Positions 7,510 to 39,677 of a stretch of DNA of 64,000 nt are shown here, in pieces (the stretch's first letter is position 1; each line of letters starts with the position of its first letter). The stretch comes from an uncultured Bacilli bacterium. GTDB lineage: Bacteria > Bacillota_I > Bacilli_A > RF39 > UBA660. The stretch covers positions 24,860-88,859 of the forward strand of contig CALVXP010000001.1 of the NCBI GenBank assembly GCA_944371525.1. Direction: 5' to 3'. The notes beneath the pieces were generated by a model. The model saw only the letters and a list, made by a program, of their open reading frames with translations. It did no database searches and was not told the DNA's origin. The translations under genes were made by a program, and so were the position numbers.

Positions 7510-7526
7510 GGTTACACCTCCCTATA

Positions 7527-7823
7527 TTAAAATTTTAAAGCAATATATGCAATTACTAATCCTGCAATAACTGTTATCGCAGATAAAGCAGCCACCCCAG
7601 CAAATCCACTACTTCTAATTCCTATATCAGCATTTAATATATTTTCATGATGTTTTTTAACTAGTGAATTATTTTTTGGGCGCATTGTTTCTGATAATTT
7701 ATAATGACCACCCTTTAAATTTGTATTGTATGAATTTTGTTCTTCAATTATGAGTGTTGATTTATCTCCTCTTTCATCAACAAACTCTCTTTCAATATTA
7801 TTATTTTTCATTAGTACCCTCAC
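7527..7823 (-). CDS. Small protein with C-terminal TM anchor, unknown function
   Basis: 98-aa ORF whose ATGA overlaps the dnaI stop. C-terminal hydrophobic helix. Confidence 0.4.
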   Translation of the reverse strand: MRVLMKNNNIEREFVDERGDKSTLIIEEQNSYNTNLKGGHYKLSETMRPKNNSLVKKHHENILNADIGIRSSGFAGVAALSAITVIAGLVIAYIALKF

Positions 7824-8740
7824 TTTCTTTTATTCTCACTTACCATAACTAATACTTCAGTAAGTTGTTTTATTCTTTCTATTATTCTTCTTGCTTTTAC
7901 TTTTTCCAAAGAATTATTTGATAAACTAAAATGTTCTTCCAATTCTTCTATTGTAAAGTTTGAAGTAAAAAATGTTGCTAATCCTTGTTGCATTCGATAT
8001 TGTAAAATTGTTCCTAATATTTCATCGCGTCCCCAAGGAGTTGTCGTTTCCGCTCCAATATCATCAATAAGTAGTAATTCTACTTTTTTAATATAATTAA
8101 ACTTTGTTTTATATTCTTCATCATCATTAAATGATTCTTTTAAACTCCTTAAAAATTCTGGGAAATATATTATTGCTACTTTTTTATCTAACTTAGCAAG
8201 TTCATTTAACATTGCCGATATTAAATATGTTTTTCCACATCCAAAATTACCCGTTAGATATAATCCTTTTCCTTTTTCTCCCTTTTTATAATTATCAATA
8301 TATTTTTTTAACCATTTAATTACTTCAAATCTATCGGGATCATCTGTATAAATATCTTTCATTGAAGCATTTTTTATATCTTTTGGCATATCATATAATT
8401 CTATATTTTTTTGATATTGAGTCTTTTTATCTAATTCTTTTTTATATTTACATGGCATATAACAAAATACAACATTATCGTTTTCAACAATTGGATAATA
8501 TACATAACCTTCAACCATATTTTTACATTCAAATATATTTTTACAATTAGCACAATTATTAAGTTCGCGGACTGTATCTTCAATTTTAGAAGTATGTTTC
8601 ATTATCTCTTTTTTCGATGTTTTTAAAGTACCTACTACTTTTTTAAATTTTTCATTTTCCATTGACTGATTAAAATCATATTCTAACTTATCAATATTAG
8701 TTCTATATGTATTCTTTATTAAATCTTTCATACTATCCAT
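7820..8740 (-). CDS. dnaI: Primosomal helicase loader DnaI
   Basis: N-terminal Cys cluster. Walker A GNFGCGKTYL. AAA+ DnaC/DnaI family. Confidence 0.8.
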   Translation of the reverse strand: MDSMKDLIKNTYRTNIDKLEYDFNQSMENEKFKKVVGTLKTSKKEIMKHTSKIEDTVRELNNCANCKNIFECKNMVEGYVYYPIVENDNVVFCYMPCKYKKELDKKTQYQKNIELYDMPKDIKNASMKDIYTDDPDRFEVIKWLKKYIDNYKKGEKGKGLYLTGNFGCGKTYLISAMLNELAKLDKKVAIIYFPEFLRSLKESFNDDEEYKTKFNYIKKVELLLIDDIGAETTTPWGRDEILGTILQYRMQQGLATFFTSNFTIEELEEHFSLSNNSLEKVKARRIIERIKQLTEVLVMVSENKRK

Positions 8741-12330: not shown

Positions 12331-13813
12331 ATATTATTAAACTAACTCCTGCACAAAAGATTCCTAAAATACTAAATGATTTAGTGTAATCTTTATTTAA
12401 TAAAGTATTAGGTACTTCTATTACTGGTTCATTTTCTACAGTTAAATTAATTACTTCTTTATTTTCTTTTATTTCAAAATATATTTTATTACTATCTAAA
12501 ATATATCCCTCTACTGTTTCTACTTCTATAAGATAATATTTTCCTAAAGGTAAGTTTTCTATTAAAATTTTTCCTTCTTCATTAGTTAATACTTCCAATA
12601 CAAATTCATCTTTTTCTGTATATAATTGAAATTTAGTATTAGGTAATTTATTCCCATTAGTTTTATCTATTTTTATTAATTCTAAATTACCTTTTGGTAA
12701 TTGATTTTCTATATTTAAATTCGATATAGCTAAACTAAGATTATCTTTATCATATATTAATTCAATTTTATGCTCTGTATCTGTTACAATATTTCCCATA
12801 GATGAAGATACTTCTTTTAAGATATATTTTCCAAAGTATAAATCGTTAATCGTTATTTTTCCTTCTTCATTCGTTTTGTAAATACCAATTACATCACCTT
12901 TATTATAAATAGTTTTACCTTGAACTATAATTGGCTCATCTACTGTTAATTCAAAAACTACATTACTTAAAGGTATATTTTCGTAGAGTATGCCATTATC
13001 TAATTTAAAAGTTTCTCCTATTTTATTTATTTCTATTTCTCCAGAATGAATATTGATATTCACATTAGCCATTTTATTTTCTAAATAACCTGATGTAAGA
13101 AATTTTTGAGAACTTCCTGCATAATAAAACATAAATACTTCATCTGTATAACTTTTTCTTTTTAAATTTATAGAATTAATATTATCTAATATATATAATT
13201 TGTTATCAGAAACATAAGATTTATCTGTATCCATTATTTCATAATCATTTAGTACTAAATTATTATCTTCAATTACAATATCTTGTCCTTTAATAAAATC
13301 AAAAGTATTGTTATTGAAAGACGGCAATAAATTGTTTTTATTTACTTTATCTAAAATGTTGTTTTTCTCTTGTTCTACATCAATTCTAGGTCCATGTACT
13401 TGATCTATGCTTGTCCAATATACTTCGCCTTTACCATTTAATACAGTTTCCCAAATTAATTCTTGAGCCGCTAAAAAATATTTTATATCACTTTTATTAA
13501 AGTAATCATATCCATAATAAGCAATTAACTTTATTCTTTCTTTTATTTCATTTGGTAAATTTAATTCATTAAAATTACTAGTAGAACTATAAATAGAAGT
13601 AGTTATATGGACATTAGGTTCAATACAATAGGCTGTTTTACCATTCATTATAAATAAATCTTGTAAATATAAATAATATTCCCCATCAGACATTTCAAAT
13701 ACTGCGTATATATCCCCAATATATTCTTGTTTTAATCTAGAATCATTTGTTTCCCCTTTTATGCTAATTGGCATAATTAATAACATTATAATTATAAATA
13801 TTATTTTTTTCAT
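12293..13813 (-). CDS. Cell-wall-anchored adhesin with a thioester domain (TED) and two CnaB-type domains
   Basis: Signal peptide. AYCIEPN (thioester Cys) and AAQELIW (TQxAIW-like Gln motif). Two prealbumin-like GKYxLxEVxxxxGY repeats. C-terminal hydrophobic stretch plus charged tail. Confidence 0.55.
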   Translation of the reverse strand: MKKIIFIIIMLLIMPISIKGETNDSRLKQEYIGDIYAVFEMSDGEYYLYLQDLFIMNGKTAYCIEPNVHITTSIYSSTSNFNELNLPNEIKERIKLIAYYGYDYFNKSDIKYFLAAQELIWETVLNGKGEVYWTSIDQVHGPRIDVEQEKNNILDKVNKNNLLPSFNNNTFDFIKGQDIVIEDNNLVLNDYEIMDTDKSYVSDNKLYILDNINSINLKRKSYTDEVFMFYYAGSSQKFLTSGYLENKMANVNINIHSGEIEINKIGETFKLDNGILYENIPLSNVVFELTVDEPIIVQGKTIYNKGDVIGIYKTNEEGKITINDLYFGKYILKEVSSSMGNIVTDTEHKIELIYDKDNLSLAISNLNIENQLPKGNLELIKIDKTNGNKLPNTKFQLYTEKDEFVLEVLTNEEGKILIENLPLGKYYLIEVETVEGYILDSNKIYFEIKENKEVINLTVENEPVIEVPNTLLNKDYTKSFSILGIFCAGVSLIIYDKKNRISFNRG

Positions 13814-18559: not shown

Positions 18560-19447
18560 TTACTCCTTATTACTTACCTCATATGCATCGCATACTAAGA
18601 AAAATATGTTTTTATCTATTTCTTTAAGTCCTTCTTTTACCACAAAATATGATCTAGTAGGAACGACACCTAATAATAGTTGTTGCTTTTCATCACTATA
18701 TCCACCTTTAGCATTTATTATTGTAACTCCACCATTCATAATGGATAACATAAAATCTCTTACTTCCTCTACTTTATCTGTTACTATATAAAATGCTTTA
18801 CTTTGAGAAATACCTAAAATAACTTTATCAGTAAGTATACTAATTATGTACAATACTATCGCTCCATATAATACAATTTCCCAAGAAAACACTATCTTAG
18901 CCGATAATACAACTAATCCATCAACCATTAACATTGATGTACCAAGACTAACTTTACTGTATTTTGATATGATTTGATTTATGATATCAGTTCCTCCTGT
19001 TGTAAAACCAGTTTTAAATATAATTCCATATCCTATTCCTGTAAGTACAGCTCCAAATATAGCAATAACTATCATTTCAACATCCCCTAATGGGATATAT
19101 GCAGTAAGAGGAGATGTTAATTTTACAAACAAAGGAAATATTAAAGAGCCTATAACTGAATTTTTAGTTTTATCAATACCTAATGTAAAAAAACTTATAA
19201 TTAATAAAACTATGTTACCTATAAAAATAAATAACGATGGATCTACTCCAAATTCATTTACAACTATTGATAAACCACTTATTCCAAAACATACAATACC
19301 ATATTGTAAAAAGAATAAATTAAATGCAAATGCAACAATAAAACAACCAATTACTAATAACATATATCTTCTAAATAAGTGTTTACTATTAATGTTTTTT
19401 AATATTTCATTTACTCTTTTTTCTCTTAATTTTCTAAAAAATATCAT
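18560..19447 (-). CDS. YitT-family membrane protein (DUF161/DUF2179), tandem paralog
   Basis: Similar to 17664-18554. Confidence 0.7.
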   Translation of the reverse strand: MIFFRKLREKRVNEILKNINSKHLFRRYMLLVIGCFIVAFAFNLFFLQYGIVCFGISGLSIVVNEFGVDPSLFIFIGNIVLLIISFFTLGIDKTKNSVIGSLIFPLFVKLTSPLTAYIPLGDVEMIVIAIFGAVLTGIGYGIIFKTGFTTGGTDIINQIISKYSKVSLGTSMLMVDGLVVLSAKIVFSWEIVLYGAIVLYIISILTDKVILGISQSKAFYIVTDKVEEVRDFMLSIMNGGVTIINAKGGYSDEKQQLLLGVVPTRSYFVVKEGLKEIDKNIFFLVCDAYEVSNKE

Positions 19448-20539
19448 ACTTGCCTCCTTATCCCTTCTATTATAAATTCTTCTATATTTCCATTTAATAC
19501 TCCTTCTACATCACCTGTTTCATATCCTGTATCATTGTCTTTAACTAAAGTGTACGGACACATAACATAACTTCTTTTTCCAGAACCAAATCCAATACTC
19601 ATTTGTCCTTCTTTTAATAATCCTAATTCCTTATTTTGTTTTTCTATTTCCAATAAATATAATTTGTTTTTTAAAATTTCAATTGCTTTTTCTTTATTTT
19701 GAATTTGACTTCTTTCATTTTGACAAGTAACTACAATCCCTGTTGGCAAATGAGTTACACGAACTGCACTATCAGTTGTATTTACACTCTGTCCACCTGC
19801 TCCACTACTACGATAAACATCTATTTTTAAGTCATTTTCATTTATTTCCACTTCAATATTTTTATTTATTTCTGGAACTACCTCTACTGATGCAAAAGAT
19901 GTATGTCTTCTTTTATTACTGTCAAAAGGGCTAATTCTAACTAATCTGTGCACTCCTTTTTCACCTTTTAAATATCCATAGGCATCTTTTCCAACAATTT
20001 TTATCATAACACTTTTTATTCCAACCTCTTCACCAAGTTGCTTGTCTATTTCTTCTACCATATAACCTTTATCTTTACAATATCTTGTATACATTCTAAG
20101 AAGCATGTTAGCCCAATCACAACTTTCCGTACCTCCCGCACCAGCATGTATTTCTAGTATACAATTATTATGGTCATATTCTCCTGATAAATAAGTCTCC
20201 AATTTTAAATTTTCTAATTGTTTTTGTATGTCTTCATATTCTATTTCTATTAATTCATATAAATCTTTATCATTTTCAGTTACCAATTCTAACATATTTA
20301 AATTATTTTTTACTTTTTTATTTAAAGATTCTATATTTTCAACTTCTCTTTTTATTAAATTAGTTTCTTTTATAATTTTATTAGCAGTTTCAGTATCATT
20401 CCAAAAATTATTTTCTTCCATTAATTTATTATTTTTATCTAAAATTTCTTTTTTACTATCTACTTCAAAGAAACCTCCATAAATTTTTTATTTCTTCAAT
20501 ACTTTTTTGATAATTATTTACTAGTTCTCTTTTTTCCAT
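19444..20539 (-). CDS. prfB: Peptide chain release factor 2, with programmed +1 frameshift at CUU UGA (20465-20470)
   Basis: Frame-0 ORF MEKRELVNNYQKSIEEIKNLWRFL-stop (20539-20465), with GGAGG 3 nt before CUU UGA. The +1 frame continues EVDSKK...MEENNFW, through the SPF and GGQ motifs, to 19444. Total about 364 aa. Confidence 0.85.
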
Positions 20540-20671
20540 ATATATCACCTATTTTAATTATACATTATAAAAATTTTATTTTAAATAGTTTTCTACTTTT
20601 TTCATATTTTTTTACTAACAATATTATTTTTTGATTTATCTATTATATCTATCCAATCTATAACTAAATAG

Positions 20672-20693
20672 AAAAAATAGACTATTAGTCTAT
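20672..20693 (-). terminator. Weak intrinsic terminator between the secA-fragment region and prfB
   Basis: atagact-att-agtctat hairpin followed by a U5 run on the minus strand. Confidence 0.35.
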
Positions 20694-20714
20694 CTCTTCT
20701 TTTATAAAAATTTA

Positions 20715-20738
20715 TTACTTTCCACAACAATTCTTATA
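20715..20738. repeat. Direct repeat (left copy), 24-nt exact ttactttccacaacaattcttata, extended imperfectly to about 20766
   Basis: Exact match to 25622-25645. About 52 nt aligns with 5 mismatches. Confidence 0.7.
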
Positions 20739-20927
20739 TTTCTTTCCAGAACCACATGTAGTGGGCTTCTCTATATTATCAATATTATTAGTATTTATAG
20801 TATTATCAGTATTTTCTTTAATACTGGTACAAGGTAACATCTGTATTATTAGTATTATTGGTATTATCTTTACTATAAATATTTTATCTACTGTGGACAA
20901 ATTGAGGACATTGTCAACATTCCACAT
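20715..20927 (-). pseudogene. Displaced secA 3'-end fragment: only the last 13 codons ([13 protein letters not shown]) are SecA-like
   Basis: Last 24 nt plus stop are identical to the true secA end (25622-25645). The upstream 57 codons are unrelated and low-complexity. Confidence 0.6.
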
Positions 20928-20994
20928 CCGTTCACTAATATAAGTATACTATATTTTATATAGTATATCAAATGTGCAAAATCAATAATATTTT

Positions 20995-21434
20995 TTATCT
21001 GATGTACTTACTCAAAAATTCTTCTAGCTCTTTTTCTGTACAAAATATTTCTTCAAAAATATTATATAACGTATCTGTTGCTTTGTATTCACCTATTGCA
21101 TAACATTTTTTGCCCATACCATAAGCTATTCCTGATTCTATATGAGCTGCTTTGCCGGCTGGTAATACAAGTAATAAATTTTTTGACCTCTTTTCACCTT
21201 CTAAATCTTGTTTAAATAAATTTAGAACAATATCACTTTTTAATCCCAATGATTCAAACTCTTGTTGTCTTTCTTCTGGTGTTTGATTTTTATTTCCATA
21301 TCCCCAATTATCTTCATTTTTTAGAAAGCAATAATAAGAAATGTTATATTTATCAAAAATATCACATATTTTAATATATTTTCTTTATTTCTTGCTCTTC
21401 CAGCAATGAAAAATTCATATTCTTCATTTATCAT
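20995..21434 (-). pseudogene. Nucleoside 2-deoxyribosyltransferase-like (NDT/DNPH1 superfamily) gene, frameshifted
   Basis: N-terminal frame MINEEYEFFIAGRARNKENILKY ends in a stop. The second frame gives ...LVLPAGKAAHIESGIAYGMGKKCYAI (FxExGxAYxxGK-like). Frame switch lies between about 21325 and 21390. Confidence 0.45.
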
Positions 21435-21471
21435 ATTCATCTTCCTTTCAAGTTAGGTATTATTTATACCA

Positions 21472-22704
21472 TTATATATTAAAATTATTAAAATTTCTAC
21501 TAGTTTCAAATAATTTAGTTACTTGTTTCTTATCTTCACTTTTACTTAAAACATAATATCTTTCAGTAGTTTCTATTCTCTTATGTCCTAGTACTTCAGC
21601 TATATCTTTTATTTCACATCCATTTCTTAAACTAACAGTAGCAAAACTTCCTCTTAAATCATAAAACCAGCAATTAATTCCTAACTCATGTTGAATTATT
21701 TTAAATGGATATCTTATAATATCTGTTCCAGAATATGTTCCATCTTTTCTAGTAAATACCATTTCAGCTCTATTAGATTTAGAATTATTTTCTACAACTT
21801 TATATTCTATTAACTTACCATATTTATTTCTTACTTGTTCTAAAACATATTGTTTATACTTCTTTCCATACGCTTTCTTATATTCATTTTGTGTTTTTTT
21901 ATAATTAAATAGTACTAAATACAGAGTGTCACAAATATAAACTTCTCTACAACTTCCAACTGTTTTAGTTGTCCCTAAATACCATCTACCTTTTTTCTCG
22001 TTATCTTTGGCATATACAGTTTTATTTATTTTTATAATTCTATTTTCTAAATCAATATCATCCCAAGTTAACACAAATACCTCTCCTGTTCTCATTCCTG
22101 TATAACAAGCGGTAAGAAATGCACATATAAACACTTTATTGTCCTTAAATCTATTCAATATAATTTCTATTTCTTCATTGGTATAAATGTGACCTACATC
22201 GTTTTTTTAATTCAAATGATAATATCCTAGGTATTTGTAAGTCACCCGCTGGATTATTTTAATAAATCCAAAATAATAAGTTGCATCTCTAAAAGAACTT
22301 TTAATTACTTTTTGATAATTTCTTAATGCCTCTTTCTTATTGGATGTTTGATACAATTTTAATAATGCTTGATTAAGAATATATGGTGTTAATTTTGATA
22401 ATTTATAATTACCTAATTCTTTTTTTATATTACTAAAAGATTCTCTATACCTTTTTGCGGTGGAATATTTATAATTTACTTCAAAATATTCTTTCATCCA
22501 ATAATCTAAATATTCAGAATATAACATTTCACATTCATTTACTTTTTCTCCATTTATAAATTCATCATAGGCTTTTTGTCCTGCTAAATATGCTTCGTTT
22601 TTATTTTTAAAACCTGATTTAGTAATTTGTTTTCTTTTTCCATTTACTTTTCCTGCTTCAAAACAATACTGATATACATTTCCTCTTTTCCTAATATTGA
22701 TCAT
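21472..22704 (-). pseudogene. Phage-type tyrosine integrase interrupted by a single in-frame TAA (22207-22209)
   Basis: N-terminal segment MINIRKRGNVYQYCFEAGKVNGKRKQITKSGFK (arm-binding). C-terminal segment with TGMRTGE...HxxR...Y catalytic region. 48 nt between the two ORFs is in the same frame. Confidence 0.7.
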
Positions 22705-22750
22705 CTTATCATCTTCCTTTCTCTTTGATCATTATTATTTTATACGAAAA

Positions 22751-22776
22751 AACAGTAGCACCTTAAATCTACTGTT
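22751..22776 (-). terminator. Intrinsic terminator downstream of the 73-aa ORF
   Basis: aacagtag-10 nt-ctactgtt, with a U-run on the minus strand. Confidence 0.4.
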
Positions 22777-22782
22777 TTAACC

Positions 22783-23004
22783 TTATATTAATTTTGATAA
22801 TATTTCATTTTTTTCTAATACATCTTTTGGTACTAAGTTCCCATTTTCTATTTTTATAAATTCCATTATCTGTACATTTTGTTCAACATATTTTCCTACA
22901 AATATGTATGCTAAACTACATTTTGAGATACTATTTTCTTTTAAAAACAAATTATAACTATCATCAACAGATGAGAAGTATAAATTCTTTTCCACAGGAT
23001 TCAT
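22783..23004 (-). CDS. Hypothetical 73-aa protein
   Basis: ORF only. Confidence 0.3.
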   Translation of the reverse strand: MNPVEKNLYFSSVDDSYNLFLKENSISKCSLAYIFVGKYVEQNVQIMEFIKIENGNLVPKDVLEKNEILSKLI

Positions 23005-23264
23005 CTTTTTTATTCATTATTTAAAATTTTACCGGAACTTAAACGTAAATGAGATTTTTAATAATTTTTAATTTACTATTGATAATTAAATATTTGCACT
23101 TAAAATACCAATAAAATTTAATATCTATACTAGTATAAAACAAAATTCAACATCTTAAAAATAAAGCTATATTTACAACTTTTCAATATTCTATATTTTT
23201 AACTTAATATTTTATGCATGAATATTTATATTTGGTGTATAATATTTTTGAAAGGAAAATGAAT

Positions 23265-24563
23265 ATGAAAAGGTTTTTAATTTTATTTTTGGTATTATTT
23301 TTATTAAGTGGGTGTAATGAAAAAGAAGTAGTTAAAGATGTTCAAGAAGATACATTGAATTATGCTTTTGTTATTGGTAAAAATGATGAGTTTCTTTTAA
23401 TTCAAGATAATAAAGGAATTATATATGAAAAAAATATATCTGGTTTAAATCCTGGTGATATGATAAAAACTTATGATGATATTAGTAATTTAAATGATTA
23501 TGAAATTATTTCTGATGATGATTTTCCGTTAGCTTTTAATGATAATGGGATTTTTAAAGATTATTATAATATTTCTTATCAAAAAGTAAAAAATATGAGT
23601 TTGGATGAGAAAATTGGACAAATTTTACTTGTTAGATATCCATCCGAAAATCAGACCGATGTTTTAGAAAAATATCAATTTGGTGGTTATGTGTTTTATG
23701 CGAAAGATTTTAATGATAAAACTAAAGATGAAGTTATTAAAATGATTAATGATAATCAAAATGTGGCTAAAACGCCTATTTTAACTGCAGTAGATGAAGA
23801 AGGTGGTAAGGTTAATAGAATTAGTACTAATTCTAACTTAGCTAATGAACCTTTTAAATCCCCTAGGGAACTTTATTTATCTGGTGGTTTTGATTTAATC
23901 AAGGAAGATACTATTAAAAAAAGTAAATTACTTTATGAACTTGGTATTAATTTGAATTTAGCGCCTGTTGCTGATGTATCTACTAACCCTAATGACTATA
24001 TGTATTCAAGAACACTTGGTGAAAACACTGATAAGACTAGCGAATATGTTAAAACGGTTATTAAATCTAGTAATGGTTTGGGTGTTACTTATACTTTGAA
24101 ACATTTTCCTGGTTATGGTAATAATACTGATACTCACCAAGGAACTTCTTTGGATAATAGAAGTTATGATGATATTTTAAATAATGATTTACCTCCTTTT
24201 AAAGTTGGTATTGATGAAGGGGCTTTATCTATTTTAGTTAGTCATAATATAGTGAGTAGTATAGATTCTGATTTACCTTCTTCTTTATCTTATAAGGTTC
24301 ATAATTTGCTTAGGGATAATCTTAATTTTACGGGCATAGTTATAACTGATGATTTGGATATGGGGGCAATCGGTGATGTTAAATCATCTACTGTTAAAGC
24401 TGTTTTAAGTGGGAATGATTTAATTATTACTACTGATTATGAAAGCAGTATAAATGCAATTAAAGAAGCTATTAATAATGGTGAAATTTCTGATAAATTA
24501 ATTGATAAGACTGCTACTAGAGTAATCGCTTTTAAATATTATAAAGGCATGATAAAAGGATAA
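23265..24563 (+). CDS. Glycoside hydrolase family 3 lipoprotein (NagZ-like beta-N-acetylhexosaminidase)
   Basis: Lipobox LLSGC. KIGQILLVRYP, KHFPGYGN...DTH and ITDDLDMGA motifs. Start set at MKRF, with an RBS 8 nt upstream. Confidence 0.75.
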   Translation: MKRFLILFLVLFLLSGCNEKEVVKDVQEDTLNYAFVIGKNDEFLLIQDNKGIIYEKNISGLNPGDMIKTYDDISNLNDYEIISDDDFPLAFNDNGIFKDYYNISYQKVKNMSLDEKIGQILLVRYPSENQTDVLEKYQFGGYVFYAKDFNDKTKDEVIKMINDNQNVAKTPILTAVDEEGGKVNRISTNSNLANEPFKSPRELYLSGGFDLIKEDTIKKSKLLYELGINLNLAPVADVSTNPNDYMYSRTLGENTDKTSEYVKTVIKSSNGLGVTYTLKHFPGYGNNTDTHQGTSLDNRSYDDILNNDLPPFKVGIDEGALSILVSHNIVSSIDSDLPSSLSYKVHNLLRDNLNFTGIVITDDLDMGAIGDVKSSTVKAVLSGNDLIITTDYESSINAIKEAINNGEISDKLIDKTATRVIAFKYYKGMIKG

Positions 24564-24579
24564 TTTTTGAGTTATCCTT

Positions 24580-25200
24580 TTAAATTTCACCAATATATTC
24601 TAATAATTTTAAGAATATTCTGATAAATTTCTTATCTAAACCTAACTTGCCTAATTTTCTTATAGCAATTCTTTTTTTCTTAATTGGTTCTTCTCCAAAT
24701 AATATTTCGTCTATTTTTTCTTTCATCTTTAATTCATTACTACCTGTAGCAATATTATATAATTCATCTATTCTCGTAATAAGATGATTAATTAAAATCA
24801 TTACTATGATAAGGATAACCATATAATAAAAGCTAAACATAAAACTACCAAATACTGCAAAATGTACAACTAATAGAATGATTTCTGGTAATAATAAAAA
24901 TCCTATAACAAACATTATTAATAATTCTTTTTCATTTAATTTTTTCTTAATTATCATAAATATCAATCCAAAAATAAGCATTATAATCATTACATTATAT
25001 ACATCGGTAATTAAATGTATAATCATATTCACATTAAATATTGTTACTCCAGATAAATATATAATACTTTGAGTAATTAATAATACAAATATAAATAGAG
25101 AAAACATTAATATAAATATCCTTAACACCTTTAATAGATTAGATATTTTATGATATGTTTGCATTCTTTTATTATTTCCTTCATCTTTCCAGTACTCCAT
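24580..25200 (-). CDS. Polytopic membrane protein, unknown
   Basis: 206 aa, four or five TM helices. Confidence 0.4.
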   Translation of the reverse strand: MEYWKDEGNNKRMQTYHKISNLLKVLRIFILMFSLFIFVLLITQSIIYLSGVTIFNVNMIIHLITDVYNVMIIMLIFGLIFMIIKKKLNEKELLIMFVIGFLLLPEIILLVVHFAVFGSFMFSFYYMVILIIVMILINHLITRIDELYNIATGSNELKMKEKIDEILFGEEPIKKKRIAIRKLGKLGLDKKFIRIFLKLLEYIGEI

Positions 25201-25283
25201 AGCACTACTATCATATAAGTCATTATATAAAAATTATAAGTTTTTAACTTTGACATATTTTTAAGTTTTGATGTTGACATTTA

Positions 25284-25391
25284 CATTTTAAATCCAGATT
25301 TACTTTTGAATTTTCTTTTCCCACCTTGGGGAGCAATTTCAAACTTATACTGAAATACCTTTCCTCTTTTTACTACATTTACTTTTCTCAT
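25284..25391 (-). pseudogene. Second integrase N-terminal stub (35 aa), truncated
   Basis: MRKVNVVKRGKVFQYKFEIAPQGGKRKFKSKSGFK resembles the arm-binding N-terminus of the 22704 integrase. Intact AAGGAGT RBS. Stops after 35 codons. Confidence 0.5.
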
Positions 25392-25432
25392 TACACAACT
25401 CCTTACTTTATGTAAACGGAGTTATCTTTAAC

Positions 25433-25464
25433 AAAAAAGTTAGCAAATGAATGCTAACTTTTTT
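25433..25464. terminator. Bidirectional intrinsic terminator downstream of secA
   Basis: aaaaaagttagca-aatgaa-tgctaactttttt, a perfect 13-bp stem with flanking A/T runs. Confidence 0.6.
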
Positions 25465-25564
25465 GTTTCCAAAATTGTTTCCAAAAATTTTTCCCTTATT
25501 TTATAAGGCTTTTCAGAGGTTTTGGTAACATCTTTTTTAATTTTGGAAACAAAATGGAAACAAA
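25463..25564. repeat. Imperfect inverted repeat whose arms each contain tandem TTGTTTCC(A)AAA units, flanking a 45-nt spacer
   Basis: tttgtttccaaaattgtttccaaaaatt ... aattttggaaacaaaatggaaacaaa. Confidence 0.5.
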
Positions 25565-25621
25565 TCGACTATTTTTTATGATTTTTTGATTTTTAAAACC
25601 TTCGCAAACCCTTATTTTATC

Positions 25622-25645
25622 TTACTTTCCACAACAATTCTTATA
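25622..25645. repeat. Direct repeat (right copy) at the true secA 3' end
   Basis: Identical to 20715-20738. Confidence 0.7.
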
Positions 25646-28117
25646 CTTTTTACCCGAACCACACGGACACGGATCATTTCTACCTACTTTAGTACTCTTT
25701 TTTTGTATTTTAACAGTATCTTTTCCATCATTAGTAATCTTGTTTTTTACGACTTCTTTTCTTTCAGTATTTTGTCTTATCTCAGATTTTAACAAATAAA
25801 TACTTACATCTTGATTTATTCTATTCATCATGTTATCAAATAACTCATATCCTTCTAAAGTATAAGCTTGAAGTGGATTTTCATTTGCATATCCTCTTAA
25901 TCCTATACCTTCTCTTAAATGGTTCATTGTACTTATATGCTCCATCCAATAATTATCAATTACTCTTAAAGTTATTGCTTTTTCAAATTCGTCTACTACT
26001 TCTTCTGGAATATCTTTTAATTTTTCATTATAATCAAGTAATACTTTTTCGTAAATAGTATCTATAACTTCTTCTGCAGACTTATTGTTAATTTCCGCTA
26101 ATGTAATACGATATTTCTTTAATAAATTTTCATTACTTGCTTCTAATATTTCTGAATAATCATTTTCTTTTAATGCATTTGTTTCTACTAGATGAGCATT
26201 TACCATTCCTGTTATATAATCTTTAAATAATTGTAATGTACTTTCATGAATTGATTCACTATCTAATATTTCATTTCTTCTTGCATACATTATTTCTCTT
26301 TGATTATTCATGACATCATCATAATTTAAAAGTTGCTTTCTTATATCAAAGTTATTTCCTTCAACTCTTTTTTGAGCACTTTCAACAGATTTAGAAAAAA
26401 CTTTATTTCTAATTGCTTGTTCTCCGGTGAAGCCCAAATTTTCAAGCATTCCACGATATCTATCTGATCCAAATCTTACCATTAAATCATCTTCAAAAGA
26501 TACATAGAATTGTGTATATCCAGGATCTCCTTGTCTTCCAGCACGACCTCTTAACTGATTGTCTATACGTCTTGATTCATGTCTTTCAGTACCTATAACA
26601 CAAAGACCTCCTAGTTCTTTTACACCTTCGCCAAGTTTAATATCAGTTCCACGACCAGCCATATTAGTAGCAATTGTTACAGCTCCTTTTTCTCCAGCAT
26701 GAGCAATGATTTCTGCTTCTCTAGCATGATTTTTAGCATTTAATACTTCATGTTTAATTTTCTTTTTATCTAACATTTTAGATAGTAATTCACTAGTTTC
26801 AATTGCTATAGTACCTACTAAAACTGGTTGCCCTTCATTGTGCCTTTTTTCAATTTCCTTTACTATTGCAGCATATTTTCCTGCTTTACCTGGATATAAT
26901 AAATCAGTTTCATCAATTCTTATAACTGGTTTATTTGTAGGAATGGTTATAACATACATATTATATATATTTCTAAATTCTTCTTCTTCTGTTTTAGCAG
27001 TACCAGTCATACCAGATAATTTATTATACATTCTAAAATAATTTTGGAATGTAATGGTAGCAAGAGTCTTAGTTTCTTGTTGAATTTTTACACCTTCCTT
27101 AGCTTCTATTGCTTGATGTAATCCTTCAGAAAATGCTCTTCCTTTCATTAAACGTCCTGTAAATTGGTCAACAATTATTACTGCATCATCTTGTACTACA
27201 TAATCCACATCTTTATGCATGGCATAATTAGCTTTTAATGCTTGATTAATATGATGAACTAATGCTGTATTACTGATATCATAAAGATTTTTAATATTAA
27301 ATCTTTGTTCGCATTTTTCTGCTCCACCATCAGTTAAACTTACAGCCTTTGTTTTTTCATCTAAAATATAATCTTCATTTTCTTTTAATATTTTAACAAA
27401 ATTATCAGCTTGAACATATAGATTTGCAGATTGCATTACTCCACCAGATATAATTAATGGTGTTCTTGCTTCATCTATTAATATAGAGTCAACTTCATCC
27501 ACTATACAATAGTTAAGTGGTCTTTGTACTCTATTTTCCTTTCTTACAACCATGTTATCTCTTAAATAATCAAAACCTAATTCGTTGTTAGTAGTGTATA
27601 AAATATCACAAGCATATGCTTCTTTCTTTTCTTTAGGGGATAATTCTCTTAAATTAAGCCCTACTGTTAACCCTAAAAATTTAAATATACTTCCCATCCA
27701 TTCAGAATCTCTAGTTGATAAGAATTCATTTACTGTAACAATATGTACTCCTTTTCCCGTAAGAGCATTTAAATATGCAGGAAGTACACAGGTTAATGTT
27801 TTACCTTCACCCGTTTTCATTTCTGCAATATTACCATAATGTATTGCAAGTCCTCCTAGTAGTTGGCAATAAAATGGTTTCATACCTAAACATCTACTAG
27901 CAGCTTCCCTAGCAACTGCAAAAGCTTCTACTAATATATCTTCTAATGTTTCACCATTTTCTAATCTTTCTTTAAATTTATTAGTATATTCTTTCAATTC
28001 ATCATCAGATAATTTTTGCATATCCTCATCTAATGCGTCAATTTCATCTGCTATTTTAGTAAATCTTTGTAATTCTTTATATTCTGTATCAAATAATTTT
28101 TTTAATACTTTTAACAT
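25622..28117 (-). CDS. secA: Preprotein translocase ATPase SecA
   Basis: DEAD motor domains. C-terminal zinc finger [15 protein letters not shown]. Start placed at [10 protein letters not shown] (GGAGA RBS 8 nt upstream), matching conserved SecA N-termini. Confidence 0.9.
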
Positions 28118-28207
28118 CTTAATCATCTCCAATGTATATTTTATCAAAAAATATTCTAAAATACTAGTTGTATAAAGAAAAAAAGCAATTTCTTGCTTAT
28201 TTCTAAA

Positions 28208-28741
28208 CTAGTTAACTGTTATAATTCCGTAGTTACCATCTTTTCTTTTATATAGTACACATAATTCATTACTATGCATATCTTTATATACAAAGAATGA
28301 ATGTCCTAACAATTCCATTTCTAATATTGCTTCTTCTTCATCCATTGGTTTCATTTCAATTGTTTTTCTTTTTACGACAGTGTTTACTTCTTCTTCATCT
28401 TCTACTGGTAATTCAAAATCAAAATTAAATTCTTTATATTTATTATTAACATTTCTCTTTTTTAATTTTGTTTTATTTTTTCTTATTTGTCTTTCTAATT
28501 TATCTAATACCAAATCAATTGCAGCATACATATCCTCATGTTCTTCTTCACTTCTTAATATAAAATTATCTGTTGGGATAGTTACCTCAATTATTTGTTC
28601 ATTTCCCCTTATCTTTAGCAAAATATTTGCTGTGATAGAATCCTCTTTGAAATACTTATCAAGTTTTCCAATTTTTGTCTCAATATAATCTTTAATTGCA
28701 TCAGTTACAACAAGTTTGTCGCCGCGTACATTAAATTTCAT
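28208..28741 (-). CDS. hpf: Ribosome hibernation promoting factor (long form)
   Basis: S30AE N-terminal domain plus C-terminal dimerisation domain. Conserved position next to secA. Confidence 0.85.
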   Translation of the reverse strand: MKFNVRGDKLVVTDAIKDYIETKIGKLDKYFKEDSITANILLKIRGNEQIIEVTIPTDNFILRSEEEHEDMYAAIDLVLDKLERQIRKNKTKLKKRNVNNKYKEFNFDFELPVEDEEEVNTVVKRKTIEMKPMDEEEAILEMELLGHSFFVYKDMHSNELCVLYKRKDGNYGIITVN

Positions 28742-28847
28742 TATATCAAATCCTTTCTTACAACTTAATTATATCACACTTTTTATTTTTTTAAACAAAA
28801 TTGCTAACAATAACATAATTTCACATAATATTAAAGGAAAAGTATAT

Positions 28848-29804
28848 CTACTTCTCCTCTTTATAAAGTTTAGACAAATTGTCTAACTCTTCAACTAAAC
28901 TATCTACTTGTGACCAACTAGTAAGTCTTGCACCAGACGCATATTTATGTCCTCCGCCACCAAAACGTGCTGCTAAATCATTTATGTATGGACCACTAGA
29001 TCTTATATTTGCTCTAATTAAGTTACTTTTCTTATCTTCTGAAAAGAAAACCCACACTAATATTTCATCAACATATTTTAAATTATTAATCATATTTCCA
29101 GCACTTGCAGAGTCTACACCAAACTCTTTCATTAAATCCTCAGTTATTTTAATATATGCAACCCCATTATCCGTAATTTGTAAATTTTGATAAACATATC
29201 CTTGAAATTTAATTTCCGCAAATGGTCTTATGTATAATGGCTCATATATACTAGTAAAATTTAAATGAGTTTTATTAATTAATTTAGTTACTAAATCAAA
29301 AGTTTTTATAGATGTATAATCATGTAAAAATCTATCCGTATCAGATACTATTCCTGTATAAATATTTTTAGCGATATTTTCTGTTAATGGTAATTTTAAA
29401 CTAAATATCATATCTAGTATTATTTGACAAGTACTAGAAGCATTGTCATCTACACAATCTATATTGGCATAGTTATCAACGATTGGGTGATGATCCATTT
29501 TTATAATATAATTATACTCTTTCAAATCTACACCATCTATTCTTTTAATGTCAGGAGTATCTAAAACAATTAATAACGAATTTTGAGGAACTTCTTCTAT
29601 TTTATCTAACATTCCTAAATATTTAAACCTACTAGCAGGGTTACCAATTGCATATACATTTTTATTAGGAAATTTAGTTTTTATAATATCTCTAAGTGCT
29701 AGTTGTGAACCTAATGCATCTGGATCTGGACCAATATGTCTAGCTATTACTATATTATTATATTCCTTTATTCTTTTATATATTTTTTTATATATACTTT
29801 TCAT
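28848..29804 (-). CDS. nrnA: DHH-family phosphoesterase (NrnA-like oligoribonuclease/pAp phosphatase)
   Basis: DHH motif (MDHHP) and DHHA1 GGGH motif. Confidence 0.7.
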   Translation of the reverse strand: MKSIYKKIYKRIKEYNNIVIARHIGPDPDALGSQLALRDIIKTKFPNKNVYAIGNPASRFKYLGMLDKIEEVPQNSLLIVLDTPDIKRIDGVDLKEYNYIIKMDHHPIVDNYANIDCVDDNASSTCQIILDMIFSLKLPLTENIAKNIYTGIVSDTDRFLHDYTSIKTFDLVTKLINKTHLNFTSIYEPLYIRPFAEIKFQGYVYQNLQITDNGVAYIKITEDLMKEFGVDSASAGNMINNLKYVDEILVWVFFSEDKKSNLIRANIRSSGPYINDLAARFGGGGHKYASGARLTSWSQVDSLVEELDNLSKLYKEEK

Positions 29805-37636: not shown

Positions 37637-37643
37637 CATTATC

Positions 37644-39677
37644 TTAATCATCTGCAAAAAAGTCATCAAAGAAAGCATCATCACTAGTTCCATCTTCATA
37701 TATATTATCAGTTGGATCTGCTTTATCTTCTTCTTGAACCCTAGCTTGTACTTCTTTTTCTTTCTTTTCTTCTTCCTCAAGTTCTGCTATTTTAGCATCT
37801 ATTCTTTTAACTAAATCATCTACATTAAATCCCGAATCACTTGAATTGCTAGAAGAGCCAAATGAAGGTAATCCACCCATACCACCAAATGGTGAACCTC
37901 CTAATGAACTTCCTCCAAACATTGATGACATATCTGGTCCAGACAACATTTCATTCATTTTTTCTTTTTTCTTTGCTTTTACAAATTCTCTTATTTCAAA
38001 TAATTCAACCGATCTTCTTTCCCTAGTAGGAAATACAGCTTTACCATAAGTTTTTCCCCAATCCATCTTAAAATTAGGTACTAATTTTGTTTTAAAAGGC
38101 ATCATCCTAAGTCGCATAGTTATAATTTCAAACTGACTTAATCTTTGTAAATCACTTACTGTAACAAGTGGTGTAGATGCAGTTTTATCTTTCTCTTTTG
38201 ATTTTACTTCACCACACATTTTACTTATTTCCTCTAATGCTGCTAATTCGTTACTTATTAGATACATTATATTACAGTTACCTTTTATAGTTTCTGCATT
38301 ATCTTTACCATATACTTGTGTTAATTGCGCATAGTTTTGAATGATAAAGTTAAATCTAATCAATCTACTTCTTGCCGCTGTTACCATTGTTGTAACATCT
38401 TTTAATGGTGGCATATTAGCAAACTCATCCAATATAAAGTTTGTTCTATAAGGAAGTTTTCCTCCACTTTCTTGAGCTACATCAATCAAAGTTTCATAAC
38501 ATTGTTTAATAAAAATTGTAGCAAGAGGATGCAGTGTCTTCTTTTCATCTTGAATTATCATAAATACTGCTGTCTTCTTTCTTCCAATATCTTTCATATC
38601 AAAATCACTATAACTTAACATTTCAGATAAATTTTCACGAGAAGAAAATATTTTAATTTTTTGTTTAAAAGTTGATAAAATACCACCTTTTGTTTCTTCT
38701 GGCGCATATACGGTACCTGAAGCATTAATATATGCTGGTTTAGAAGGATCTTTTCCATTAAAATATTCTTTGATATAGTTACTATTTGGACCTCCAAATC
38801 TTTCTTCACCAATTGTAGCCATTAAATTTATACTATTTAAATTTATTTGATTTTCTGTTCCATCTTCAAAAAGTCCAAGTGAAAGTCCGGAGAAATAGTC
38901 CGCTCCTGATTTTTCCCAGAAAGGATCAGCATTTCCACTCTTTTCTTCATACAATATATTTAAAGCTAAATCATCCAGTAATTCTATTGCTTTATCCATA
39001 TTTCCTTCTTTATATAAGTTATAAGGAAGCGTCATCGGGTTCCATGCATTACCCTTCTGAGGATCACGGAAATTAAGAACAACTATATTGTATCCTCTTT
39101 CTCTAAGCATCTCTGCCGTATTTTCATATATTTCACCTTTAGGATCTGTTATAATCATTGATTCTTCGTGTTTAGCTAAACTTTGAACAAGTGGGAATAC
39201 AACAATTTGTGTTTTACCCGAACCTGTGGCACCCACTATTAAATTGTGCATTTCACCATCGTCTACCCACATCTTATGTCCATCATTTATAACAACAAGA
39301 CCTGCAGCATCTGCTGAATATGCTTTAGGATCAACTTCTTTCAAAGTTTTCTTCATTTCTCCATCTTTACACCATCTTGAATATCCCTTATCTTTCTTCT
39401 TTGTGGAAAATCCAAATCCCTTTTCTCTATCAAAAAAATAAGAACCTACTGCTGTAAAAATACCTACTAACGCTAATAAAAACAAAGTTAATGTCGCACC
39501 AATAAAATCAGGTGTAAAAGCTTTAAAAGGAACAATTCCATATACTTTTCCTTCGGTAGCCAAAGAATTAGCATTTAATACACCAATTGCACACATATAT
39601 AATAAAAATATACAAAATCCACAAAAAATTGCTATATCTTTTGGTTCTGCTCTAAATTTCATACTATTCCTCCTCAT
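37644..39677 (-). CDS. VirD4/TraG-family type IV coupling protein-like ATPase (orphan), with Gly/Ser-rich and acidic FFDDFFADD C-terminal tail
   Basis: Two N-terminal TM helices. Walker A LIVGATGSGKT. Walker B ILDEFANM. T4CP-like all-alpha insertion. Confidence 0.7.
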   Translation of the reverse strand: MRRNSMKFRAEPKDIAIFCGFCIFLLYMCAIGVLNANSLATEGKVYGIVPFKAFTPDFIGATLTLFLLALVGIFTAVGSYFFDREKGFGFSTKKKDKGYSRWCKDGEMKKTLKEVDPKAYSADAAGLVVINDGHKMWVDDGEMHNLIVGATGSGKTQIVVFPLVQSLAKHEESMIITDPKGEIYENTAEMLRERGYNIVVLNFRDPQKGNAWNPMTLPYNLYKEGNMDKAIELLDDLALNILYEEKSGNADPFWEKSGADYFSGLSLGLFEDGTENQINLNSINLMATIGEERFGGPNSNYIKEYFNGKDPSKPAYINASGTVYAPEETKGGILSTFKQKIKIFSSRENLSEMLSYSDFDMKDIGRKKTAVFMIIQDEKKTLHPLATIFIKQCYETLIDVAQESGGKLPYRTNFILDEFANMPPLKDVTTMVTAARSRLIRFNFIIQNYAQLTQVYGKDNAETIKGNCNIMYLISNELAALEEISKMCGEVKSKEKDKTASTPLVTVSDLQRLSQFEIITMRLRMMPFKTKLVPNFKMDWGKTYGKAVFPTRERRSVELFEIREFVKAKKKEKMNEMLSGPDMSSMFGGSSLGGSPFGGMGGLPSFGSSSNSSDSGFNVDDLVKRIDAKIAELEEEEKKEKEVQARVQEEDKADPTDNIYEDGTSDDAFFDDFFADD

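Follow-up and report, generated by a model that had tools for sequence, protein, structure and literature searches.

A decayed integrative island between secA and prfB in an uncultured Bacilli bacterium, and its relatives at SEC-C-coding DNA

Introduction

Why is secA separated from prfB by several kilobases of DNA, and why does a second copy of its last codons stand beside prfB? The question is raised by a stretch of 64,000 nt from an uncultured Bacilli bacterium of the RF39 lineage (UBA660; assembly GCA_944371525.1, contig CALVXP010000001.1, positions 24,860 to 88,859 of the forward strand), which was analysed as a whole and is called the window hereafter. In agreement with the gene order on which an earlier note on this DNA had relied, prfB directly follows secA in most of the 80 Bacillota loci that were fetched with a SecA query, and the prfB match usually begins 150-700 nt past secA. 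In the window, the minus strand reads secA, the left or P' arm of an attachment (att) site, an integrase stub, a membrane open reading frame (ORF), a GH3 gene, orf73, an integrase gene, a gene resembling nucleoside deoxyribosyltransferase (NDT), the right or P arm, a displaced secA tail and prfB. We conclude, with a probability that we put at nearly nine in ten, that what occupies 20715-25663 is a site-specific integrative island of 4.9 kb, composite and now decayed, which was inserted between secA and prfB. It belongs to a family of small islands in uncultured gut Bacilli that has apparently not been described before.

Results

The end of secA is duplicated beside prfB

From the list of ORFs, the earlier note had reported that a 70-codon minus-strand frame (20927-20715) shares its last 13 residues with the SecA C-terminus and that 24 nt, including the stop codon, are identical at both places (20715-20738 and 25622-25645). 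Both observations stand. The same note extended the likeness by about 50 nt of imperfect identity past the 24 nt, which has to be corrected: pairwise comparison adds 18 nt, and upstream of TGTGG the two copies are unrelated. The direct repeat is 42 nt long (20715-20756 versus 25622-25663) with 38 of 42 positions identical, and each of the four mismatches falls on a synonymous third position. The exact 24-mer occurs twice in the window, where 100 shuffles give an expectation of zero even at three mismatches. Markov simulations (500 runs) never gave an exact match longer than 18 nt, nor a 42-mer match better than 27/42, versus 24 nt and 38/42 observed. The similarity of the repeat is far beyond chance, and the AT-rich composition of this DNA does not account for it, as both shuffles and simulations remain below the observed match.

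The secA gene itself has stayed intact, as had been proposed: its frame is full-length and, across hosts, its tail class co-varies with the P' arm. Gene calls from two further metagenome samples include an identical protein of 831 aa. An exact-protein look-up with the TTG start gave no match, and the called gene uses an ATG 30 nt downstream.

Related islands occupy secA tails in other gut Bacilli

A search with the stop-bridged translation of the integrase gene retrieved intact proteins 74-84% identical to it, together with many split ones. Two intact integrases, P0001 (84%) and P0006 (77%), lie directly downstream of secA in at least 10 contigs, which share the layout secA, variable ORF, integrase gene, cargo, P arm and tail remnant. 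A common layout among relatives runs secA, a 260-aa ORF or a 433-aa kinase, integrase, a 341-aa ORF, Fic and a second secA tail. The idea that an element had integrated into the secA 3' end and reconstituted its tail is borne out by these relatives, which stand at secA tails with the same arms, the same repeats and swapped cargo.

The comparison of loci, which bear L numbers of our own, is most telling among close relatives. In L103, the flanks of the window (secA and prfB-YitT-YitT-ftsE-ftsX) enclose a tryptophanyl-tRNA synthetase (TrpRS)-like gene, an integrase, a 340-aa ORF, Fic and a 167-aa ORF; the same prfB-YitT-YitT-ftsEX flank recurs in L083-L085. L115, whose SecA is 97.8% identical to that of the window (92.5% at the DNA level), carries a different island made of a 451-aa ORF, an integrase and a 208-aa ORF. 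Finally, L002, with an identical SecA, has the island of the window followed by a different tail copy and another element arm in place of the prfB flank. Even close relatives therefore differ in what lies between secA and its downstream neighbour, and the change is in every case at the tail repeat. The island structure seen in the window was assembled independently in L002, L083 and L084, which belong to the same species.

Tandem arrays of two or three tail-bounded islands were found in L086, L092, L095, L097, L114 and L003, and the presence of array members varies between L092 and L095 as well as between the window, L002 and L115. Islands bounded by tail repeats and devoid of an integrase occur in L092 (MqsR-SocA) and in L003. 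The latter has three tail copies (12455, 13522 and 14247) delimiting two tiny integrase-less islands, with ppaC and ackA downstream of secA. Of 80 species-representative secA loci, L003 alone has additional copies of the tail, so that such islands are confined to a single clade and are no general trait of Bacillota.

The islands are more alike than their hosts. The window and L086 share 92% nt identity in the integrase gene and 88% in the P arm, yet their SecA proteins are only 70.6% identical. Similarly, the integrase genes of L114 (SecA 59%) and L116 (SecA 50%) are 80% and 87% nt identical, respectively, to the intact L092 allele. As the integrase DNA is closer than the host SecA, horizontal transfer of the islands is shown.

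The crossover probably lies at the left edge of the repeat

In all tail copies aligned, the DNA to the left of TGTGG is either secA coding sequence or a P arm, and that to the right of the stop codon is either chromosomal or the P' arm of an element. Which class of sequence the 42-nt core belongs to depends on the right flank and not on the left one. For instance, the first remnant of L086 and the secA tail of L005 have a common core (TGTGGCTCAGG...) and the same type of P' arm. Likewise, the secA tail of L092, an internal site of L095 and the L099 site have essentially one core, one tail (KQCCGKNA-stop) and one P' arm behind three different left flanks, the L099 core differing from the L092/L095 core at a few synonymous positions. 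The P' arms of L092 and L095 are 100% identical over 200 nt, and so are their island and core, while the left flank in L095 is the P arm of another element and not secA; the join reads ...ACA/TGTGG. Between the window and L002, the P arm is common and divergence begins at core position 9.

Since the core class follows the right flank, the crossover would lie in or next to the first ~8 nt, TGTGGTTC. With a crossover so far to the left, the present secA tail (25663-25622) would be element DNA, and the displaced copy (20756-20715), together with the terminator behind it, would presumably be the ancestral end of the gene. The predicted junction of the empty site is secA...CCG/TGTGG...GGAAAGTAA/TAAATTTTTATAAAAG, where slashes mark the joins.

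These observations are consistent with the following course of events. The att site of the element would consist of a P arm, a 42-nt mimic of the secA tail and a P' arm. A tyrosine integrase with an N-terminal arm-binding domain would recombine it with the last 42 nt of secA, which encode the SEC-C zinc-motif residues (last 13 codons) and the stop; the strands would be exchanged at the far left end of the homologous stretch, inside or beside the segment named above. By this event, secA would receive an element-supplied tail and a terminator hairpin, and its original tail and terminator would be displaced by 4.9 kb, next to prfB. At least two elements would have accreted in tandem, and a deletion within the interval would then have taken away the att site between them along with the greater part of the left-hand integrase, leaving a single island with the membrane gene, the GH3 gene, orf73, the integrase gene and the NDT-like gene. 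A composite of at least two elements is proposed because the interval contains two integrase N-termini but only two cores.

Indeed, the second integrase N-terminus that had been noticed in the interval is present, as a stub of 36 codons. Compared by eye, it looks most like the N-termini of the 422-425-aa integrases of L095 and L097, and repeats D4 and D9 tie it to 22605-22689. In L113 and L086, the same P' arm is followed by stubs that are shorter still. The stub is probably a relic of a second element.

The integrase is broken and both attachment sites are conserved

The integrase homologue P0001 matches a PHROG integrase (E = 2e-57). Candidate catalytic motifs were recognised by eye in the translation: MRTGE, KTVGSCRE, YDLRGS (with Tyr where His is usual) and LGHKRIETTERYY. 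The single in-frame stop that had been held responsible for inactivation is present, but it results from two homopolymer indels, as revealed by mapping the lesions against intact alleles (L092 and L086) and against alleles with eight adenines: A5 has become A4 at 22257-22260, and A7 stands in place of A9 at 22202-22208, for a net loss of 3 nt. Between the two indels, some 17 codons are read in the wrong frame until a TAA at 22207-22209 closes them. Apart from these lesions, the gene remains very close to an intact one (the 92% nt identity to L086 mentioned above). Inactivation after insertion is upheld, since the window copy has indels in its integrase gene and in its NDT-like gene as well.

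As it stands, the island cannot excise by itself, and both arms and both cores are intact. Att sites conserved beside a broken recombinase are what characterizes a cis-mobilizable element (CIME). This raises the alternative that the island is no dead end but CIME-like, cis- or trans-mobilizable, so that a related integrase present elsewhere or in tandem could excise or move it. We consider this alternative rather unlikely, though several observations speak for it. Besides the conservation of the cores and arms, relatives typically have their islands in tandem arrays (L086, L092, L095, L097 and L114), the content of the array differs between near-identical hosts (the window, L002 and L115), and integrase-less tail-bounded islands persist in L092 (MqsR/SocA) and L003. 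However, neither a further integrase of this family nor a further SEC-C core is present in the 64-kb window, every sample of the species seen has the gene broken in the same way, and no excised or circular form was observed.

An A8 tract recurs in the integrase family

Twelve integrase alleles were compared, eleven of them tabulated and that of L114 read by eye. Nine of the twelve have A8 at the same tract, in hosts whose SecA is 50-98% identical to that of the window, and are split at this one point into 170 aa and about 230-250 aa. The others are L092 (A9, intact), L086 (A7 compensated by a 13-nt frame-restoring deletion) and the window (A7 and A4). The alleles lie at 9453-10687 in L097, 1573-2807 in L098, 1286-2556 in L102 and 9453-10696 in L103, in L113-L116, and, for the tract of the window, at 22202-22208. 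In the protein search, a hand tally among close relatives gave ~22 clusters of C-terminal halves versus ~8 full-length clusters.

The context of the tract is TTA AAA AAA ACN NNN TA(A/G), which includes an A AAA AAA heptamer with a stop in the 0 frame two codons on, and a -1 shift restores ..KKN(D/N).. in the alleles that were read through (L097, L098, L099/L102, L103, plus L114). These A8 alleles thus have a slippery heptamer in place, whereas the A7 allele of the window fails to qualify. The ratio of nonsynonymous to synonymous substitution rates (dN/dS) is 0.06-0.21 in both halves for almost all A8 pairs, at dS up to about 1, with the exception of L097 versus L098, whose C-terminal halves are nearly identical. 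Such ratios mean purifying selection on both halves in spite of the frameshift, a hint of recoding. The nearest relatives of each intact allele are A8 alleles. Further lesions in L099, possibly in L103, and in the window fit decay in part of the family.

A conceivable interpretation, to which we give well below even odds, is that the A8 integrase may be made by -1 frameshifting or transcriptional slippage, or that the tract may serve as a reversible switch. The gene would then give two products, an N-terminal one of 170 aa that binds arm and core sites and, upon the shift, the full-length enzyme. The alternative reading is that of recurrent A9-to-A8 slips, tolerated or favoured once the island is useful.

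The target extends to SEC-C-coding DNA outside secA

In L099, L100 and L101, an element occupies the 3' end of a gene whose 653-aa product is not SecA but has a SEC-C motif at its C-terminus. The target gene now ends in KQCCGKNA-stop, and the displaced copy reads KKCCGK-stop, the same as in an intact 655-aa paralogue nearby. These loci carry a P' arm of the L092 type along with the KQCCGKNA-stop tail, and the tail therefore travels with the P' arm. The relevant positions for L099 / L100 are 6291-8252 and 12852, and the target gene lies behind a DUF2398 / SbcC-like (1345 aa) / DUF3323-JetD_C-DUF2399 cluster.

Related elements that encode a 423-aa integrase were found in 268 blocks of the collection. 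In L106 (5097-5756), such an element with an HTH_17 excisionase adjoins a 219-aa ORF at its SEC-C motif, which here is N-terminal; the ORF is called from a start inside the P arm, and the arm may supply the start codon. In L104 (6000-11600) and L105 (4800-10350), the elements end in a P arm and a SEC-C core, and no left SEC-C core was found within 3-10 kb upstream. The non-SecA tail of L099-L101 and the L106 case together indicate that the target is SEC-C-motif coding DNA, of which secA is the most widespread carrier. The association of the family with SEC-C tails is demonstrated.

Parts of the island and their cargo

The features of the interval and its flanks are compiled in Table 1. In general, islands of the family are minimal: besides the arms and an integrase, they have between one and four cargo genes, placed in two slots, between the P' arm and the integrase gene and between the integrase gene and the P arm.

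Table 1. Features of the island and of its chromosomal flanks, from prfB to hpf (positions are those of the window)
Feature	Position	Strand	Description and evidence
prfB	19444..20539	minus	Right-hand chromosomal flank; sequence and ORF
Intrinsic terminator	20670..20700	minus	Sole terminator-like site in a scan of 20400-25700; directly 3' of the displaced tail; presumably the original secA terminator
attR core, displaced secA tail	20715..20756	minus	TGTGGTTCTGGAAAGAAATATAAGAATTGTTGTGGAAAGTAA; repeat comparison; SEC-C match
P arm (right)	20757..20990	minus	~235 nt, AT-rich; covers most of the 70-codon ORF
NDT-like gene, frameshifted	20995..21440	minus	Aligned to intact 148-aa homologues in L098 and L097
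Tyrosine integrase pseudogene	21472..22704	minus	PF00589 E = 1e-17, PF14659 E = 2e-6, PF14657 E = 3e-6 (stop-bridged translation)
orf73, just upstream of integrase	22783..23004	minus	Kept in L002, L083 and L098
GH3 (NagZ-like N-terminal domain) lipoprotein gene, cargo	23214..24563	plus	PF00933 E = 1e-57; lipoprotein signal
206-aa multi-pass membrane ORF, cargo	24580..25200	minus	Hydrophobic segments at ~residues 19-147; also in L002 and L083
Integrase N-terminal stub	25283..25390	minus	36 codons, MRKVNVVKRGKVFQYKFEIAPQGGKRKFKSKSGFKM followed by stop; Arm-DNA-bind_4, E = 0.0015, below curated cut-off
P' arm (left)	25391..25621	minus	GTTTCCA / TTGGAAAC inverted repeat pairs from 25561, 25550, 25484 and 25472
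attL core, present secA tail	25622..25663	minus	TGTGGTTCGGGTAAAAAGTATAAGAATTGTTGTGGAAAGTAA; 42-nt repeat with attR
secA, intact	25622..28117	minus	831 aa; ORF; Pfam SecA_SW and SEC-C at C-terminus
hpf	28741-28208	minus	

The P' arm includes a terminator at about 25433-25464, with an A-run, a hairpin and a U-run (dG -21.2 kcal/mol, z -7.45). It is 84% identical to the L092 arm that follows a tail remnant (12994-13219) and nearly identical to the L113 arm. The latter is devoid of one 12-nt GGAAACAATTTT unit, and the short repeats of the P' arm therefore vary in copy number between strains. The contig of one sample, L001, breaks within this arm just ahead of the hairpin (~25460 of the window).

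The P arm is 88% identical to L086 12282-12538 and is conserved over 10 aligned elements. Its block sequence is TGTCCTCAATTTGTCCACAGTAGA, and it combines an inverted repeat (TTGACAATGTCC..TTTGTCCACA, in a longer form TGGACAnTGTCC...TTTGTCCACA) with at least six (G/A)ATAATA(C/T)N repeats. These repeats are plausible, putative binding sites of the arm-binding domain of the integrase. On the far side of the displaced tail, the +1 programmed frameshift site of prfB is canonical (GGAGG..CTT TGA, 20470-20465, minus strand), which is the reason why its ORF seems to start at 20421. Promoter-like sites do not exceed the shuffle expectation in this AT-rich DNA, Rfam gave no RNA family in 19000-29000, and no tRNA was found in the 64-kb window.

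Concerning the cargo, the GH3 lipoprotein announced by the earlier note is well supported (PF00933 and a lipobox LSGC) and is 100% identical over 354 aa in L098. The membrane protein that it had recognised is equally plain from several hydrophobic membrane-type segments in the 206-aa ORF, which has no match in Pfam, PADLOC or PHROG. For orf73, Pfam and PHROG gave no family match. The frameshift in the NDT-like gene is real (A5 to A4, 21369-21372), but its label is tentative: an intact homologue matches a PHROG nucleoside deoxyribosyltransferase (E = 9e-6) and nothing in Pfam. Copies 95-97% identical are present in L114 and L110 (95% in L114), and L098, a locus of the same species with the identical GH3 protein, keeps the gene intact (148 aa).

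An alternative history would have the membrane/GH3/orf73 block native between secA and prfB, with only the integrase-NDT unit and, separately, the stub region inserted. The GH3 gene does lie on the opposite strand, there is no compositional contrast with the flanks, and the block has no match in mobile-element or defence libraries. Nevertheless, no att core or arm separates the block from either integrase copy, and it is lacking between secA and the integrase of L115, despite a SecA 97.8% identical, as well as in L103 with its same flanks. Moreover, L097 has a different, 308-aa ORF in that slot, upstream of an integrase-NDT unit close to that of the window (dS ~0.13 for the N-terminal and ~0.32 for the C-terminal part), and the genes of the block occur in 0 of 80 related secA loci. 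A native block is accordingly very improbable, and we keep to an integrative island that spans the whole interval.

That the 70-codon ORF truly encodes a small protein with a SEC-C motif, whose likeness to the SecA tail would reflect motif conservation, is hardly credible. It is an open frame with a Pfam SEC-C match (E = 7e-5), but this match is confined to residues 58-70 and the first Cys pair of the motif is missing (TTCGSG versus CPCGSG). The part upstream of the motif is the non-coding P arm, which has in-frame stops in most other elements, and the identity to secA is at the DNA level, stop codon included. The ORF is made of the P arm and the displaced secA tail and is not a gene. As for an assembly chimera or a non-specific segmental duplication, the least probable explanation of all, the DNA is metagenome-derived and one sample's contig breaks inside the P' arm, but the same junctions were assembled independently in at least three samples, which therefore excludes an assembly artefact, and the same architecture is found in many other hosts.

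The cargo of relatives is richer in recognisable functions. In PADLOC, the 341-aa ORF and Fic correspond to the candidate system PDC-M59A/B (E = 1e-101 and 8e-35), the kinase is similar to those of PD-T4-6 and mad6, and the cargo includes an OLD/AriA/GajA-like ATPase in L099 and MqsR-SocA(Panacea) in L092. A class Ib tRNA-synthetase paralogue is also among the cargo of sister islands, whose coordinates are 10810-12281 in L086, 8635-9936 and 13309-14606 in L092, 10798-12597 in L099 and 8404-9396 in L103. As judged from these matches, the cargo of relatives is largely defence-like and the secA tail in these genomes appears to act as a small defence-island hotspot. In the window itself, neither the membrane ORF nor the intact L098 homologue of the NDT-like gene matches PADLOC (GH3 and orf73 were not submitted).

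The class of element was approached by gene content. Pfam domains of relaxases, coupling proteins and type IV secretion systems (T4SS) were found neither in the ORFs of the window that lie inside the att boundaries nor in the islands of relatives, so that an integrative and conjugative element (ICE) or an integrative and mobilizable element (IME) is not indicated by gene content. A prophage or satellite origin is likewise unsupported: among phage modules, PHROGs gave the integrase and the weak NDT match only, IMG/VR yielded 0 matches for the 24-nt core, for a 24-mer of the P arm and for relatives of the integrase, and among GenBank phages no integrase exceeds 34% identity. In the matching contig L001 (1-474, equivalent to ~37640-38120 and beyond of the window, minus strand), a gene with the T4SS coupling-protein domains T4SS-DNA_transf and TrwB/TraG stands by clpB, some 10 kb upstream of secA; it may belong to a conjugative element in another part of the window.

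Discussion

The present analysis points to an integrative island that entered the SEC-C-coding end of secA, restored this end with its own DNA and later decayed. Several observations weigh against this view or limit its details. No empty secA-prfB junction was recovered in the same or a sister species: all contigs with an identical prfB carry the tail remnant or start inside it, and a metagenome scan with a 30-mer of the right-hand junction gave no match. The insertion is therefore deduced by comparison and not seen directly. L003, the closest species-representative genome (SecA 84%), is rearranged and has no prfB nearby. The profiles of G+C content and skew display no island signature, the interval and its flanks being compositionally alike. 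The islands carry no conjugation or phage genes that would point to a route between cells. Finally, the crossover position, the ancestral tail and the order of events are inferred, the first of them from sequence-class switches among natural sites, and tandem accretion plus deletion is one of several routes to two integrase N-termini.

In spite of these points, what the locus teaches is rather simple. Integration at a 3' end with a substitute end is a classic strategy, and what is unusual here is the att site, the secA/SEC-C coding sequence. No description of secA or of the SEC-C motif as attachment site was found in the literature searched, an absence that is no proof of novelty. Essential secA can be parted harmlessly from its usual operon partner prfB, since a tail and a terminator come with the element and prfB keeps its own upstream region. 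A peptide motif fixes about 40 nt of AT-rich coding DNA across divergent hosts, and such a motif-fixed target would explain how integrase genes can be 80-92% identical at the DNA level between hosts that have only 50-70% identity in SecA. As a hotspot, the site gathers very small islands into tandem arrays that exchange cargo, candidate anti-phage systems included. Annotators of these genomes who meet a small SEC-C protein just past secA are likely dealing with an att relic and not with a gene.

Two aspects most deserve attention, a target that is defined by a motif and present in several genes, and the A8 tract, which may matter more than the island. Recoding by -1 frameshift or slippage is well known from the transposases of the insertion sequences (IS) IS1 and IS3, and no description of frameshift-dependent tyrosine integrases was found in the literature searched. 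If true, recoding of the A8 alleles would extend to tyrosine integrases a regulatory device known from IS transposases, which would be new in that literature. It is tempting, but speculative and in our judgement doubtful, to join both aspects: a recoded integrase may use SEC-C DNA anywhere as a portable, multi-gene and broad-host landing pad for accreting defence islets.

How do these islands compare with known systems? Integrated anti-phage defence islets are known at P4-like or integron-like hotspots. Similarly, relatives of the island carry PADLOC candidate or known defence genes in variable slots, while the tested cargo of the window has no match in the defence library. As in genomic islands at tRNA and tmRNA genes, the integrase gene lies beside the att site, the 3' end is restored and a direct repeat stands at both ends. 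Unlike in those islands, the att site encodes a protein motif, there is no tRNA in the window, and the repeats tolerate synonymous change, so that it is the conserved peptide that constrains the att site.

Accretion of ICEs and CIMEs is known at the 3' end of fda in Streptococcus thermophilus, and streptococcal ICEs and IMEs also reside at the 3' ends of rpsI, rplL, rpmG and guaA. Integration at a 3' end, tandem accretion, decayed integrase-less elements flanked by att sites and exchange of cargo are shared with the islands at fda. The differences reside in the lack of conjugation or mobilization genes among those found, in the hosts, which are uncultured gut Bacilli of ~25% GC, and in the integrase, which is less than 34% identical to any in the GenBank phage collection.

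The closest parallel in mechanism is that of e14 and phage 21, which integrate into the 3' end of icd in Escherichia coli and carry a substitute end, with a duplicated segment of ~165 nt. Here too, a tyrosine integrase acts in the 3' end of a housekeeping gene, a substitute end is supplied, a displaced pseudo-tail is left at the far junction, and the two tails differ mainly at synonymous sites. What sets the present islands apart is the secA/SEC-C target, a duplication of 42 nt, a size of 3-5 kb without phage genes, the formation of tandem arrays, and the use by the same type of element of a non-secA gene that has the motif.

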